Source: a virus (Duplodnaviria; Heunggongvirae; Uroviricota; Caudoviricetes). Taken from it: a DNA stretch of 40,849 bases. The notes beneath the pieces were generated by a model. That model searched no databases and had not been told where the DNA came from. It saw only the letters and a list, made by a program, of their open reading frames with translations. Made by a program: the position numbers and the translations under genes. This document shows, piece by piece, positions 5,455 through 28,661 of this stretch. Location of the stretch: the IMG/VR virus record IMGVR_UViG_2563366924_000005, positions 1 through 40,849 of that record; one strand, written 5' to 3'. Position 1 is the stretch's first letter, and the number at the start of each line of letters is the position of its first letter.

Positions 5455-5516
5455 GTCAATATTTCCTAATCCGATTTGTTGATACCGAAGCCCTGACTGT
5501 TCCCGCAGTTGGGGCT

Positions 5517-5690
5517 TCAACTTTTTGCTAGATTACCTTTAGAACTATCCCGCCTTAAACTATCCACTAACCGCATTACCATCTCGGTATTTATTGAGCG
5601 ACCATTTTCTTTCGCTGACTTCTCGATTGCTAACTTAACCTCTAATGGGATGCGCAAAGGGTACTTTGGTGCGTCTGACTTGACTATCAT
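5517..5690 (-). CDS. arc: Arc-like ribbon-helix-helix repressor
   Basis: 57 aa from ATG at 5690 with GGAGG 5 nt upstream; ...[29 protein letters not shown] resembles P22 Arc (..REVLDLVRKVAEENGRSVNSEIYQRV..); directly upstream of ant. Confidence 0.75.
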
Positions 5691-23623: not shown

Positions 23624-23960
23624 CGTCAACTCCCGCCTTTTTTGCTGCAAGTTTTTTAATAAGATTGCCGATCGAATCGGTGCCGATGTATCCAATAAAG
23701 ACGCTGGCTATGTAGGCGAGGTTGCTGCTCAGGCCGATAAAGTCCAGAAGGTCACGAACGAACCAGGCAATCATCGCGCACATCAGCGCATCAATTAGCG
23801 TTTTTGTTACCGCGCCGCCGTTATAGCGACCACGCAGATACGCCATGATAAAAGCCAGCATTGCACCAATACCCTGCTCCTTGGCGGCAAGTAGCGCAGC
23901 GATGAAATCTTGTTTGTATGGCAATTTTTTCTCCCTACGCCTGGCACGCGAATTGACCAT
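23607..23960 (-). CDS. Class I holin, lambda S-like
   Basis: ...[93 protein letters not shown] closely matches recalled lambda S. Confidence 0.8.
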
Positions 23961-24435
23961 GATATTTCCCCCTAAACTCTGAGATTACCAACTCAGCAAG
24001 TTCGAGATCATCGAAGTAACCCAACCAGATCTGCTTCTTATTTCTACTTCCGCAAACTCTCCATTTCCCATTCTTAACATCAAGCCTGACGCCCTTTATG
24101 GGATTCTTTCCTCCGGATGGTTTGCGTCTGTTATATTGATTTTCTGATTTGGTCGATAATCTGAGGTTTTTAATGCCATTGTTTAATGGGTTTCTATCTA
24201 AATGATCCACGTCCATTTCTGGCATGCATCCATATACATACAACCAAGCCAGCCGATGCTCTTTATAGATTTTCCCATCTATACGTATTTGCCTGTAACC
24301 AGATCCATTAATCGTTCCAGCTCTTGAGCCAACTTTAATTCTGCGATTGCTGGATTTAACCCAAGTAAAAACCCCTGAAACAGGATCATAGTGCATAAGG
24401 CTTTTCAGGACTTGCTGAGTGATTACCATTTTCAT
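23935..24435 (-). CDS. HNH homing-endonuclease-like protein (HNH plus AP2-type DNA-binding domain), copy 1
   Basis: Start MKMVITQQ with GGAGGTGA ribosome-binding site; motifs [24 protein letters not shown] and [12 protein letters not shown]; inserted between tRNA-Asn and holin; AT-rich. Confidence 0.75.
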
Positions 24436-24617
24436 AGGCCTCACCTCCGATTTTCCGGATGGTGCTGTGTGTGTTTGTAGGGGAAAGGCCGTCAGACTCT
24501 GATTGCTACATGGCATCTGAAAATGATATCTGCGGCCTGCAATAAAAAAGCCCACGGCGCGGTGGGCAATAGAGGGTAGTGCGTTGAGCTTTTGCTCTTA
24601 TGGTCCTGGTAGGTATT

Positions 24618-24692
24618 TGGCGGGACAGCGTGGACTCGAACCACGATAAGAAGGTTAACAGCCTTCCGTAATGACCTTTATACGACTGACCC
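24618..24692 (-). tRNA. tRNA-Asn-like gene (anticodon GTT) between Q and the lysis genes
   Basis: Minus-strand read GGGTCAG-TC-GTAT-AAAGGTCA-TTAC-G-GAAGG-CTGTTAA-CCTTC-TTAT-CGTGG-TTCGAGT-CCACG-CTGTCCC-G-CCA: perfect anticodon and T arms, U33, GG in D-loop, encoded CCA; one T-T mismatch each in acceptor and D stems; 4-nt variable loop. Confidence 0.5.
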
Positions 24693-24755: not shown

Positions 24756-25274
24756 CTAAATGGCTAATTGCATGTCAAGGTTTTTAACAGCAACATGCTT
24801 AACTTTCTCAACACGTTTACGCATTTTGAAAGCATTTTGCATTGGTTGGTACAAAACAAATAATGACGCTTTCAGGATGTCGTCAATTTCATTTCTACAG
24901 GTTGCCAGTGAAGGTTTTCTCCATCCCTCGCCACCACGTCCACACATCTTGCGTGGCTTTGCAGTCGCGTGATAGTAGGATGCAATTGCTCGCTTAGATG
25001 AACCATGAGCGTAGTAGCTGAGGAGGATGCCAAAGGCTTTCTTGTCAATGTACATGACGGAATCGACGACCTGAGAAATCAACATTCCATCGTCATCATT
25101 ACACATTGGCCTTGTAATAACTCTTCCCGGCTCTACGCTCTCCATGAACTTCGCTATTACGCTGCTCATGCGCTTTTCCAGACGACCTGAATAAACCCAT
25201 GCGCCCCATAGTTCAAGCCATCCATTCAGCCAATCGTGCTGCTCTTTGGTGAGGTTTATTTCTCTTATGCTCAT
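24756..25274 (-). CDS. Late-gene antiterminator Q (QuuD-type)
   Basis: 172 aa; WLELWGAWV and CNDDDGMLIS motifs resemble QuuD-type Q proteins as I recall them; position just upstream of the lysis cassette and downstream of ninH/rusA. Confidence 0.65.
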   Translation of the reverse strand: MSIREINLTKEQHDWLNGWLELWGAWVYSGRLEKRMSSVIAKFMESVEPGRVITRPMCNDDDGMLISQVVDSVMYIDKKAFGILLSYYAHGSSKRAIASYYHATAKPRKMCGRGGEGWRKPSLATCRNEIDDILKASLFVLYQPMQNAFKMRKRVEKVKHVAVKNLDMQLAI

Positions 25275-25459
25275 CGTCTTCCCCTCTTGCCCTGTTTGAC
25301 CATCAGGACGCCGTTAACTATTACGTGACGCTCGCCTTTGCTGTCTCGGTTGTACTTAAGCACTGTTCCTCTTGCGCAGGAAAGCATCCTCGCCACTTCG
25401 GTCTGATTGCCTCGTGTCTGGATAAGAAGCTCTGGTATCGTTTGAATTGTGGCGTTCAT
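25271..25459 (-). CDS. ninH: NinH
   Basis: 62 aa; IQTIPELLIQTRGNQTEVARMLSCARGTVLKY..VIVNGVLMV matches recalled lambda NinH (VKTIPDMLVEAYGNQTEVARRLKCSRGTVRKY..AIVNDVLMV). Confidence 0.75.
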   Translation of the reverse strand: MNATIQTIPELLIQTRGNQTEVARMLSCARGTVLKYNRDSKGERHVIVNGVLMVKQGKRGRR

Positions 25460-25818
25460 GCGTTCTCCAGTTCGGTGATTTTTATTCCAAGCCTTCCGCC
25501 TGGTACTTTCACACCACGAATTACGCGAATGTCATCGAATTGCTCGTCGTCTTCCGCAAATCCGGCGTGGATAAGGGAGTCGAGTAAACCTTTCAGGATG
25601 TTGTCGAGGTCACGGCGGCGGGAGTCTGGAACGTCTGCGATGACTTTGATGCGGAGTCGTGATTTGGTGAAAATGTCTAACTTAAGTTGGCGGATGATTT
25701 GCTGAACGTCTTTTCGGTATTTCTGGCCTTTATCGCTGATGTAGTATTGGCTTCCCCGTCTTCGCCAGTAGGTGTTCAGCGACGGTGGGTACGGAAGTGT
25801 GAATCTGTATTCTGCCAT
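25456..25818 (-). CDS. rusA: RusA-family Holliday-junction resolvase
   Basis: 120 aa; LPYPPSLNTYW...VPDSRRRDLDNILKGLLDSLIHAGF..DDEQ...GGRLGIKITEL matches the RusA pattern (PDRRRRDLDNL). Confidence 0.8.
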   Translation of the reverse strand: MAEYRFTLPYPPSLNTYWRRRGSQYYISDKGQKYRKDVQQIIRQLKLDIFTKSRLRIKVIADVPDSRRRDLDNILKGLLDSLIHAGFAEDDEQFDDIRVIRGVKVPGGRLGIKITELENA

Positions 25819-26343
25819 TTATCCTCTCCCATGATTATGGTGATACCCCAATCGTGATTCCGCCAATTTTCTGGCATTAACGGCTAGAGATATGTCATCG
25901 TATAATCCAAGAAATATCTTTTTATTATCACTGTTTATATATGCGCCCCACTTTTTATTCTTCTTATAGTAGGCAACACCCATTACTCCAGAGCGATTAT
26001 TAATAGGCTTTTTTCTGTTCCTTGAGTTCTGTTTATCATCTACAACGCGCAAATTGCATATTCTGTTATCGCTTTTAATTCCATTTATGTGGTCAATTTC
26101 CCCATCAGGTTCTCTTCCATAAAAGGATATCCATGCGATTCTATGAGCTCGACAAACTTTTTTATTTACAGATATACGAACGTATCCTTTTTCATCTATA
26201 GAACCAGCAATCTTACCGGCATATGTTGAATTCCAGCACTCTCTTACACTTTCTCTTCTTTTGTATATAAACAAACCTGTTTCGCTATTATATTCATACA
26301 ATTCATTGATTTCTTTTTGTGTTGGATATCTTTTGCCGTTCAT
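25819..26343 (-). CDS. HNH homing-endonuclease-like protein (HNH plus AP2-type domain), copy 2
   Basis: 174 aa; GYVRISVNKKVCRAHRIAWISFYG and EIDHINGIKSDN motifs; same architecture as 23935-24435; very AT-rich; abuts rusA and the upstream gene with no spacer. Confidence 0.75.
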   Translation of the reverse strand: MNGKRYPTQKEINELYEYNSETGLFIYKRRESVRECWNSTYAGKIAGSIDEKGYVRISVNKKVCRAHRIAWISFYGREPDGEIDHINGIKSDNRICNLRVVDDKQNSRNRKKPINNRSGVMGVAYYKKNKKWGAYINSDNKKIFLGLYDDISLAVNARKLAESRLGYHHNHGRG

Positions 26344-26630
26344 GACTTAATCTTCCCCTCCTTCAGCAGTATCGCCTGCGTCCTGATCACGCCTTCGAGG
26401 TGGTAAAGTCTGGCGTCTTTGTTGTCGAGATTATGGGTGCGTCGGTCGATCTCCGCGTGGCAGTCACTACAAGCCCATGCGCCGATCAGGTCGTCAGGCT
26501 TCATTCCCGTTCCGCAAATTCCAGCCATCCGGTAATGTGCCAGAACTGTAGTTTCAGGATTACCATTGCATACGCCGTAAATACGTACCTGGCATTCTCT
26601 GCAGCGTGCTTCTTTGCGTAGGTTAGCCAT
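26340..26630 (-). CDS. Nin-region cysteine-rich (putative zinc-binding) protein
   Basis: 96 aa with CxxC...C...CxxC...H pattern (RCRECQ, GVCNG, CSDCH); a family commonly found in lambdoid nin regions; exact family unverified. Confidence 0.45.
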   Translation of the reverse strand: MANLRKEARCRECQVRIYGVCNGNPETTVLAHYRMAGICGTGMKPDDLIGAWACSDCHAEIDRRTHNLDNKDARLYHLEGVIRTQAILLKEGKIKS

Positions 26631-27352
26631 TAAGCAGCCTCACCGGTTACTTTCAGCATTCCGTTATCGAGCAGCTTTCTGGTCAGCCACTGTTGACCAC
26701 GCCCGGTGATTTTTGTGGTGAACGATATCTGTATTCCGTGATTTGTATTGACCGCTGTTTCTTTCACTGCGAAATAGCCGCGATCCATATATTCCTGCAT
26801 TGGCACATTGCGCCGGGAACCTGAAGCAATAAGGATTTTGTGATCGCGCATCCACGCAAACAGTTTGTTTGGACCAATTCCAACAACCTTTGCAAAGTTT
26901 CCAATCAAAATTCCGCTGGCCTCGCCAACGCGATCGGCAAACTCAACTTTAGGTGCGGCAATTGCGAGCTGGTTTTCCAGTTGCATTTTCTGCTCAGCAA
27001 GGTCAGCAGCAAGGCGCAACGCTTCCGGTAGCGTTTTTGGGATATTAACCGCAGCTTCTTCAAGCTCTCGCCAACGGTCAACAAGGCGAGCGGTGAACTC
27101 TGGCGACAACTGGGCAACAACGACAATACTGTCTCGCTTACCTTGTTCGCCCTCGAAGACGTAATGCTCGTACTGAACATTGAACCCTAAGTTATTGATT
27201 CTTTCGGAAACCTCAATTTGAGGAAGCCGGATAACACCATTTTTAGCCAGCGTTTCGATGGTACGTTTCACATTGTCATGACGCTTACCCACCAACTCAG
27301 CGATTTCAATGCTTGTCATTTTGATGGCATTGCCATTTATTAACTCATTCAT
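26630..27352 (-). CDS. Rha/Roi-family regulatory protein with antirepressor-like C-terminal domain
   Basis: 240 aa; N-terminal MTSIEIAELVGKRHDNVKRTIETL resembles the phage Rha HTH domain; C-terminal part resembles a KilA-C/Ant-type domain; nin-region position. Confidence 0.65.
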   Translation of the reverse strand: MNELINGNAIKMTSIEIAELVGKRHDNVKRTIETLAKNGVIRLPQIEVSERINNLGFNVQYEHYVFEGEQGKRDSIVVVAQLSPEFTARLVDRWRELEEAAVNIPKTLPEALRLAADLAEQKMQLENQLAIAAPKVEFADRVGEASGILIGNFAKVVGIGPNKLFAWMRDHKILIASGSRRNVPMQEYMDRGYFAVKETAVNTNHGIQISFTTKITGRGQQWLTRKLLDNGMLKVTGEAA

Positions 27353-27557
27353 CGTCTTCTTCCTCGTACATTGAGCTATTCGGATCGCTCATCAGTTCTG
27401 CGCAGCACGCTTCACACACGTGAACTTCCAGCACATGCAGCTTCTGACCGCAGTTAGCGCACGTTAAAGCCCGCTCGACGCTTTCTTGTTCGTAACTTCG
27501 ATTTGGGTCAATCACCTTGTATTCCTCGCACGATTTCTTAGCCACCGGATATCCCAC
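27345..27557 (-). CDS. ninF: NinF-like protein
   Basis: [37 protein letters not shown] matches recalled NinF; true start may be internal because the ORF overlaps ninE. Confidence 0.6.
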
Positions 27558-27694
27558 AGGTGAGCCGTGTAGTTGAAGGTTTTTACGTCAGATTCTTTTG
27601 GGATTGGCTTGCGTTTATTTCTGGAGCGTTTCGTTGGAAGGTATTTGCAGTTTTCGCAGATGATGTCGGTGATACTTCGTCGCTGTCGTCTCAT
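27512..27694 (-). CDS. ninE: NinE
   Basis: From [52 protein letters not shown] matches recalled lambda NinE; start taken at the internal ATG of ORF 27512-27784. Confidence 0.7.
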
Positions 27695-28218
27695 GCCGCC
27701 CTCCTGACGCCCTGCCAGATCGCCATCAATGCCGCTTTGGATACGGTAGTAAACATCCGTCGAGGACTGATAAACGGTCGCCAAATCAGCAGCATGGAGC
27801 CTTTGCTGTTTCCCTTCTTCTCCAGCCCTGTCGATGGTTCGATAAAATTAATCCGTCCATCAGTGATAATGCGAACTTCGTCGACACTCTCCAGAGCCTT
27901 GCTGAACCATCCGACTGACATATCCTCTGGCACAAGCATAACTACCGTCTGTCGCTGTTGTATGCACTGCTCAGCGGCTTTTTCCACCCACGGCCTGATA
28001 TTGCTGTACGGTGGGTTATTCCAGATTGCACCGTGGCTTATCCACTCAGAATTTAGCGCGTCGTCAGCCTCAGTTAGCCAGTGAGCGCACAGAGCATTTT
28101 TGTCGCTCGCTGCCGAATCCAGCCAGAATCCAAACTCAATATCCAGTGCATCAAAAAGCCAAAGCGGCGTTTGCCAGCAGTCCTTGTCGTGTGCTGGCGT
28201 ATTTGATTTGATAGTCAT
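27691..28218 (-). CDS. Orphan DNA N6-adenine methyltransferase (phage Dam-like)
   Basis: ORF 27691-28245; NPPY motif (WNNPPYS) typical of N6-adenine/N4-cytosine methyltransferases; no adjacent restriction gene; nin-region position. Confidence 0.7.
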
Positions 28219-28661
28219 GCAGCCTTCCCTTTTCGTTGTGACCATTCATACTCTCGCCGGGAGTCATCACTCCATCGCACGTTGCGCTCTGAGCCGAACC
28301 AGAACATGATTTCGATAAGCTCAGTCATGTTGGCCTTTCGCATTTTGCTGGTACGCACGCCAAGCATGACAACGCCACCATCGATACCAGGCACACTTCG
28401 TTGCTCCAGTTTTTTGGTCTTAAGCCACAGGGCAGTGAACAGGTCTTTCCAGTCTTCCGGCGCCAGCCGTTGACCATGCCATAGCACCTGACGCGAAACA
28501 TCGTTCAGCATCGGCCACATACGGTCATTCTGCGCTTTGCTGCGTTTGGGTTCTCTAACGTGGACTTCGTGGGGTGACTTGTCGTCGATGGGTAGTGAGA
28601 GTATTGCGTCTATGGCGTTATTTCTGATTGCTTCGTTGCGAAGCATGTATATTTGCTTCAT
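28215..28661 (-). CDS. ninB: NinB (Orf-family recombination mediator)
   Basis: ORF 28215-28679; ...RSKAQNDRMWPMLNDVSRQVLWHGQRLAPEDWKDLFTA...SKMRKANMTELIEIMFWFGSERNVRWSD matches recalled lambda NinB (..QNRKLWACLGDVSRQVEWHGRWLDAESWKCVFTA..). Confidence 0.75.
   Translation of the reverse strand: MKQIYMLRNEAIRNNAIDAILSLPIDDKSPHEVHVREPKRSKAQNDRMWPMLNDVSRQVLWHGQRLAPEDWKDLFTALWLKTKKLEQRSVPGIDGGVVMLGVRTSKMRKANMTELIEIMFWFGSERNVRWSDDSRREYEWSQRKGKAA

Follow-up and report, generated by a model that had tools for sequence, protein, structure and literature searches.

What is a small, AT-rich nuclease gene doing between two conserved genes in the nin region of a prophage, and is it mobile? The gene, here called HNH#1, lies in a 40,849-nt stretch of viral DNA (the window), IMG/VR record IMGVR_UViG_2563366924_000005. 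The prophage in it adjoins yfdC and a tRNA-Arg gene (1009-1081), and on this side the sequence shows 97.8% identity to an E. coli chromosome. The presence of a sar antisense RNA implies a P22-type immI region, and hence a P22-like prophage. The block around HNH#1 is a typical lambdoid nin/late-control block on the minus strand, in which the lysis genes (holin, endolysin and Rz) come after a second gene of the same type, HNH#2. The features referred to below are the following.

1209-2423: integrase, next to tRNA-Arg
5456-5522, plus strand: sar antisense RNA (Rfam RF00262, 71.6 bits)
27691-28245, minus strand: Dam methylase
27345-27557, minus strand: NinF
26630-27352, minus strand: Roi/antirepressor
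26340..26630, minus strand: ybcO/DUF1364, upstream flank and presumed left homology arm (Pfam YbcO, E=5.5e-42)
26340..26343, minus strand: ATGA overlap of 4 nt between the ybcO stop and the HNH#1 start
25819..26343, minus strand: HNH#1, predicted 174-aa HNH_3 nuclease with an AP2-like C-terminal domain, intact ORF with ATG start
25456..25818, minus strand: rusA Holliday-junction resolvase, presumed target gene and right homology arm (Pfam RusA, E=2.4e-16)
25271-25459, minus strand: NinH
24756-25274, minus strand: Q antiterminator
24618-24692: tRNA-Asn
23935..24435, minus strand: HNH#2, 166-aa paralog, HNH_3 and an AP2 match below threshold

Three predicted nucleases thus stand consecutively at 25456-26630 on the minus strand (YbcO/DUF1364, the HNH-AP2 gene and the RusA resolvase), and YbcO/DUF1364 itself carries the label 'HNH endonuclease' in PHROG 131 and in RefSeq phage records.

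The first-pass annotation described HNH#1 as an extremely AT-rich gene wedged into the nin region, with zero spacer on the rusA side and a 4-nt overlap upstream, and all of this holds. With ybcO on one side and rusA on the other, the HNH#1 ATG (26343-26341) overlaps the TGA of ybcO/DUF1364, and no nucleotide separates its TAA (25821-25819) from the rusA ATG (25818-25816). The GC content is 35.0% (GC3 29%), as compared to 52.6% for ybcO, 49.6% for rusA and 46.7% for the whole window. HNH#1 is a real gene and not a chance ORF, because it matches Pfam HNH_3 (PF13392) at residues 65-108 with 62.2 bits (cut-off 24.8, E=3.5e-17) and PHROG 99, 'HNH endonuclease', with E=4e-63. With an ORF of its own and an intact gene on either side, it is free-standing and not part of an intron or intein. 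An Rfam scan of the window gave no intron RNA family, only two tRNAs and the sar RNA, and on this ground an intron or intein as the carrier was rejected. An own promoter was also rejected, since no promoter-like site was found on the minus strand near the gene.

In an alignment of HNH#1 with 67 homologs (68 sequences), H67, D84, H85, N93, N97 and N109 are invariant and N106 nearly so, and D84-H85, N97, N106 and N109 are the candidate catalytic residues. In a sequence comparison, VDHKDGN...NLR...N is the counterpart of this motif in the homing nickase I-HmuI (1U3E), which is the sole solved structure reached by the HNH#1 sequence (E=0.011), and also the top Foldseek match in the PDB (E=8e-4) for the AlphaFold model of HNH#1 (pLDDT 94, pTM 0.80). 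In the model, strands 82-85 and 98-101 followed by helix 103-108 make up a beta-beta-alpha metal-finger fold. The C-terminus (residues 123-165) is modelled as strands 123-126, 131-138 and 141-148 and a helix, 151-165. Foldseek places this part on TEM1 AP2 (7ET5) with an rmsd of 1.2 A over 46 columns and on AtERF1 (1GCC) with 1.2 A over 50; WRI1 (7WQ5) also matches, and the probability is 1.00 for these AP2 matches with E values of 0.01-0.2. According to the predicted structure, the C-terminal domain is an AP2 fold, a three-stranded sheet packed against a helix. The proposed HNH/AP2 architecture is thus upheld for HNH_3 by Pfam and for AP2 by the AlphaFold model, but not for AP2 by Pfam; PF00847 is absent from HNH#1 even at E<=10. 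A precomputed PF00847 match is found in about 30% of the HNH#1 homologs listed.

The AP2-like domain of the model makes it conceivable that HNH#1 is a domesticated homing endonuclease that now acts mainly as an AP2-type DNA-binding transcription regulator and not as a nuclease, and DNA-binding domains of homing endonucleases have been co-opted as regulators elsewhere (PMC10448857). We consider this highly improbable, since the HNH catalytic motif is complete, conserved and subject to selection, and the insertion anatomy described below points to mobility. A defence-system nuclease was rejected as well: PADLOC matches to HNH#1 are confined to its 'homing endonuclease' models, and the NCBIfam models gave no match. 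In a collection of 5.8 billion proteins, the relatives of HNH#1 form one 90% cluster of 145 members, from E. coli, and beyond it the next relatives fall to 49% identity or less. No close relative was found among GTDB species representatives, and none of the distant homologs is located next to rusA, ybcO or ninH.

Does the locus exist without the gene? A 1601-bp query across HNH#1 is reduced to 1076 bp in HK97, HK022, HK620, HK629, mEpX1, CUS-3 and many other phages. These empty phages are exactly 525 bp shorter, and ybcO and rusA are joined by an ATGA overlap. The site-1 region is matched by 1,338 of 5,426 complete E. coli genomes, of which 32-33 are occupied and about 1,300 empty, so that HNH#1 is present in about 2.5% of the E. 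coli genomes that have the ybcO|rusA site; the inserts in the occupied genomes are 98.9-99.8% identical to it. The IMG/VR collection contains, among the matches listed, 17 complete copies, a further copy interrupted by a contig end, and more than 120 empty ybcO|rusA junctions. No cultured phage record in INPHARED has the insert at high identity. HNH#1 is thus polymorphic for presence and absence at one precise site in otherwise homologous genomes. The papers that could be searched describe no homing gene in the lambdoid nin region.

Two of the E. coli genomes deserve a comment of their own. In strain 1008S19 (NZ_CP147050.1; L239 3020-4210) the 5' end of HNH#1 has been lost to an IS1A insertion, in what appears to be a degraded prophage; ybcO and the upstream replication/nin genes are gone, and the IS1 is followed directly by cII. 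In strain Z1323CEC0004 (NZ_CP148483.1) two places match ybcO-rusA, and HNH#1 is present in one of them. Should the second place be an empty, sensitive allele belonging to another prophage, donor and target would share one cell, and such coexistence, if true, would bear on when or whether the nuclease acts.

Comparison of the alleles on the coding strand gave the exact borders of the insertion (brackets mark the inserted segment):

Empty alleles: ...AAG(Y)C ATG AAC GAA TAT CAG TTT GTG CTT CC...
Window, left junction: ...AAGTC ATG AAC G[GC AAA AG ...
Window, right junction: ... GGGAGAGGA TAA ATG GCA] GAA TAC AGA TTC ACA CTT CC...

The features of the insertion are:

25798..26336, minus strand: 539-nt segment in place of 14 nt (AATATCAGTTTGTG) of the empty alleles, from the BLAST comparison of L024 with L217 and the HK97 alignment
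25816..25832, minus strand: 3' end of the cassette with the Shine-Dalgarno-like GGGAGAGGA, the HNH#1 TAA and the new rusA ATG, from reading the sequence
25779..25815, minus strand: recoded rusA patch, nt 3-39, codons 2-14, changing NEYQFV to AEYRFT

The 539-nt segment begins directly past the common ATGAACG and extends to nt 21 of rusA. The start ATG of HNH#1 is the original rusA start codon of the empty-site phages, and the ATGA overlap suggests that translation of HNH#1 is coupled to that of ybcO. When 19 occupied alleles were compared with 108 empty ones, strongly differentiated positions were found in rusA nt 3-39 only, 14 sites in all, fixed in the occupied alleles and rare or lacking among the empty ones, and no fixed differences between the two groups were found in ybcO or further into rusA. 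Eleven of the 14 sites fall in rusA nt 3-20, and the variants there are present in 0-8% of the empty alleles. The recoded patch adjoins the insert in 18 of 18 IMG/VR contigs and in 33 of 33 occupied E. coli genomes, and it was seen in none of 120 empty IMG/VR loci, both IMG/VR counts being among the matches listed. A rusA allele of a donor phage, with AEYRFT and no insert, could have accounted for the patch. This was rejected, as such an allele is absent from phage records, empty IMG/VR loci and E. coli genomes alike: no RusA with an AEYRFT N-terminus was found among 50,697 phage records (best 92.5%), and the patch without the insert was not found in 5,426 E. coli genomes.

One pair of loci is nearly isogenic. 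The occupied L024 and the empty L217 are identical over 698 bp upstream, and downstream (about 550 bp, to position 593) they differ only by the insert and the 14 patch sites, which implies a transferred unit of about 565 bp. The mobile unit, as read from these alleles, is the 525 bp together with the 14 substitutions in rusA nt 3-39, and the patch is a candidate cleavage-immunity or target region.

The same 19 occupied alleles show a mean identity of 99.2% in the insert (minimum 98.5%), as compared to 95.5% in ybcO (minimum 91.4%) and 97.7% in rusA, and the sequence outside these two genes is mostly unrelated. Nucleotide diversity among occupied alleles is about 0.008 in HNH#1, falls to 0.000 over rusA nt 1-50 and then rises to 0.03-0.06; in empty alleles it is 0.05-0.10. 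Flank haplotypes of occupied alleles are interspersed with empty ones, and three occupied ybcO haplotypes match an empty allele at every position and are separated from other occupied haplotypes by as many as 23 differences. The low GC, the gap around the E. coli cluster and the diversity pattern point to a recent arrival of HNH#1 from an AT-rich source, and a recent spread among diverged lambdoid backgrounds. The ORF is intact in all 19 sampled copies, and with 12 synonymous and 6 non-synonymous polymorphisms the pN/pS is 0.12, which suggests that HNH#1 is under purifying selection.

These numbers bear on two other explanations. HNH#1 could be what is left of an old invasion, decaying or inactive, with a purely vertical and recombinational distribution. 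In favour of this, it is rare, and IS1 has truncated one of its 33 genomic copies. The intact ORFs in 19 of 19 copies, the catalytic residues and the pN/pS of 0.12 speak against a relic, as does the insert being several-fold less diverse than its flanks, which implies recent spread; this explanation is very unlikely. HNH#1 could also be an accessory, 'moron'-type nuclease that was inserted once, is spread by ordinary recombination via the ybcO/rusA flanks without driving its own transfer, and is kept since it benefits the phage, for instance by cutting competing lambdoid genomes (exclusion). Intact copies under purifying selection fit any useful function, mosaic flanks are normal in lambdoid phages, which recombine freely, and the low frequency fits as well; furthermore, one set of boundaries and one recoded patch in all copies are consistent with a single origin. 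However, only the cassette and 40 nt were transferred between the backgrounds of L024 and L217, which is very short for two random crossovers, and unless cutting is selected against it is difficult to account for 14 substitutions clustered at the junction. To exclude a competitor by cutting its empty allele would moreover be to begin homing, which makes the two models overlap, and the HNH#1 family is known for homing endonucleases (PMC10448857). We regard an accessory nuclease of this kind as rather unlikely, but as the main rival of homing.

The best explanation, to which we assign a probability of roughly 0.7, is that HNH#1 is a predicted free-standing HNH-AP2 homing endonuclease gene invading the ybcO|rusA junction of a P22-like/lambdoid prophage, and the best reading is that the element is active or recently active. 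Homing-type mobility is supported by the exact boundaries, the linked patch, the near-isogenic pair, the conserved insert and purifying selection. The sequences show what the gene and its domains are, how the insertion is built, that it is polymorphic for presence and absence, that the patch is linked to it and that it is conserved; nuclease catalysis, the target site and a nuclease-driven conversion are what we infer from them. Lacking a promoter of its own, HNH#1 would be transcribed with the delayed-early nin operon. It takes over the former rusA start codon, which overlaps the ybcO stop, its translation probably being coupled, and its 3' end supplies rusA with another ATG and ribosome-binding site and with a recoded 5' end. 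Once a cell contains both an occupied and an empty lambdoid genome, the nuclease may nick or cut the empty allele in or beside the conserved CATGAACGAATATCAGTTTGTGCTTCC, and recombinational repair off the occupied allele would copy in the 525-bp gene together with the patch of about 40 bp. The split site and the recoded patch would then shield the occupied allele from cutting. Since relatives such as I-HmuI and the T4 Mob enzymes nick, either nicking or cleavage is possible for HNH#1. Some observations count against homing. The frequency of HNH#1 in site-bearing genomes is low for an efficient drive, free recombination among lambdoid phages could produce the same mosaic distribution and diversity gradient from a single insertion, and the candidate immunity changes are within 40 nt, unlike the distant cutting in T4.

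The second gene was claimed at the outset to be a paralog with the same domain architecture and a divergent sequence, and the two copies were taken to suggest active homing. When the proteins were aligned with BLASTP, they showed a significant similarity, 32% identity over 161 aa (E=1e-27), in agreement with the claimed paralogy and divergence. The Pfam AP2 match of HNH#2 has 25.1 bits, below the cut-off of 33.3. HNH#1 and HNH#2 are true but distant and old paralogs with the same architecture. As for active homing, a mobile element of the homing type is supported, but copy number alone is weak evidence for it. The features at the HNH#2 site are:

23922..24426, minus strand: HNH#2 cassette of 505 nt, right after holin ATG-AAA-ATG, from comparison with Louie and Omnitron and with the occupied contigs L223 and L224
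23607-23924/23960, minus strand: holin

Empty site 2 in the phages Louie and Omnitron reads GGAGGTGAGGCCT ATG AAA ATG CCA TAC AAA..., a lambda-type holin dual start. As the cassette follows directly after ATG AAA ATG, HNH#2 would use the holin's own ribosome-binding site and start codons, and the 3' end of the cassette, GGGAG AAAAAA TTG, is a replacement start giving a 105-aa holin. The dual start is removed by the cassette (window 23922-23960), and an in-frame upstream ATG (Shine-Dalgarno GGGGG, 7-nt spacer) would give a 117-aa form with a very basic extension of 12 residues before the TTG codon. The replacement start sequence is identical in both other HNH#2-occupied contigs. It is conceivable that the 117-aa form could be a substitute antiholin or alter lysis timing. 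The interval from Q to HNH#2 contains a PR'-like promoter (TTGACA-18-CATAAT, 24778-24749, minus strand), tRNA-Asn and, at 24567-24550 on the minus strand, a strong hairpin that resembles a terminator and has a T-run. Transcription of HNH#2 and the lysis genes should therefore take place only when Q acts as antiterminator. The segment of about 110 nt from the tR'-like terminator to the nuclease ATG is unrelated between L224 (2390-2500) and the window (24436-24545), with homology on both sides, which implies that the HNH#2 cassette is found behind two different late-operon leaders.

Empty alleles, which the first-pass annotation suggested looking for at both positions, are found in large numbers also here: IMG/VR has 58 exact empty junctions at site 2, and 2 occupied contigs. 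HNH#2 had no match in complete E. coli genomes. Both occupied IMG/VR contigs are empty at site 1, and E. coli CUVET19-1937 has HNH#1 and not HNH#2; each is thus found without the other, which shows that they are independent and that the window is a double carrier. Because of the low identity, the different targets and the independent occurrence, the two genes are the result of two separate invasions, and not of a recent duplication.

A third member of the family was found on another contig:

L042 2977-3528 (IMGVR_UViG_3300045988_022724): third HNH_3 member, between the lysis genes and a Rha-like gene

This gene product is 44% identical to HNH#1, and the gene lies upstream of the Rha-like gene, flanked by an imperfect direct repeat of about 40 nt of that gene's start region; the downstream copy of the repeat encodes the last codons of the nuclease. 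More than 40 empty sites exist for this position. HNH#1 is also present on this contig, whose end interrupts it, and site 2 is empty there.

How does HNH#1 compare to known systems? HNH proteins of the HK97 gp74 type act with terminase in DNA packaging, adjoin the terminase genes and are without AP2. HNH#1 shares with gp74 the HNH motif and a lambdoid-type phage, but its place is the nin region, which is remote from the packaging genes. HNH combined with AP2 is a recognised homing-endonuclease architecture, and such genes are known from protists, cyanobacteria and phages (Magnani et al. 2004, cited in PMC10448857), among them Vibrio phage ICP1 with its 'IPA-HNH' genes (PMC10448857). HNH#1 resembles these genes in having an N-terminal HNH and a C-terminal AP2 part, being a small free-standing phage ORF, and having a patchy distribution. 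The ICP1 genes have diverged too far to be matched by Pfam HNH_3. HNH#1 matches this model strongly, and its AP2 part is missed by Pfam. It further differs from the known HNH-AP2 genes in residing in temperate lambdoid/P22-like E. coli prophages, with nearest relatives at most 49% identical. With I-HmuI of Bacillus phage SPO1 (1U3E) it shares an N-terminal beta-sheet DNA-binding region and a DH...N...N His-Me finger; contrary to HNH#1, I-HmuI resides in a group I intron and has a C-terminal DNA-binding part that is not AP2, and the identity is about 24%. I-HmuI nicks one strand.

T4 MobE and the other free-standing mob/seg endonuclease genes are examples of 'intronless homing' (PMC2988022, PMC2790892), and they spread by gene conversion with co-conversion of the flanks (PMC2988022, PMC2790892). 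The Mob enzymes, like I-HmuI, nick rather than cleave (PMC2988022). HNH#1 is likewise free-standing and wedged between conserved genes, and like in the nrdA/mobE arrangement of T4 (PMC2988022) its start overlaps the upstream stop, suggesting translational coupling. In T4, the sites cut by free-standing endonucleases are usually hundreds to thousands of bp away from the gene that encodes the enzyme (PMC2988022), while all HNH#1-linked differences are at most 40 nt from the insert. It also differs from the T4 genes in being carried by a temperate prophage and in that the cassette replaces the start codon of its target with a recoded substitute.

A start-capture design is seen in three members, all in related P22-like/lambdoid prophages, at the rusA start, the holin dual start and the Rha-like gene. 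It is possible, and we put this forward tentatively, that the cassettes are built as 'operon-neutral' homing modules, which capture the start and ribosome-binding site of the target and carry a degenerate or recoded replacement start region; this region may double as immunity against the module's own nuclease. In a family-wide local-alignment test for a duplicated start region, 4 of 57 distant loci were above the 99th percentile of mismatched pairs, a mild enrichment. The strict test, requiring the same first two codons, gave 4 of 56 distant homolog loci as compared to 2.4 expected (P=0.21), which is not significant. Start capture is thus evident from the anatomy of the three lambdoid cases, but as a rule for the family it is unproven. 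If the design is general, nuclease recognition sites could be read directly off the recoded patch, and homing genes can rewire translation control, for instance of a holin/antiholin dual start.

Homing endonuclease genes have mostly been studied in T4-like lytic phages. As an element HNH#1 is of a known kind, but its lineage and its insertion site are new, and neither it nor HNH#2 changes the known picture of the homing mechanism. It is a clean and apparently undescribed example of the homing type in temperate lambdoid and P22-like phages. The classical phages HK97, HK022 and HK620 have the empty target, so cleavage, homing and the proposed immunity patch are testable by standard E. coli genetics, and the tight linkage of the patch of 14 substitutions to the insert allows a prediction of the target site from sequence only. 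HNH#2, finally, shows that an element of this kind can replace the dual-start motif of a holin, a possible route by which selfish genes may alter the timing of lysis.
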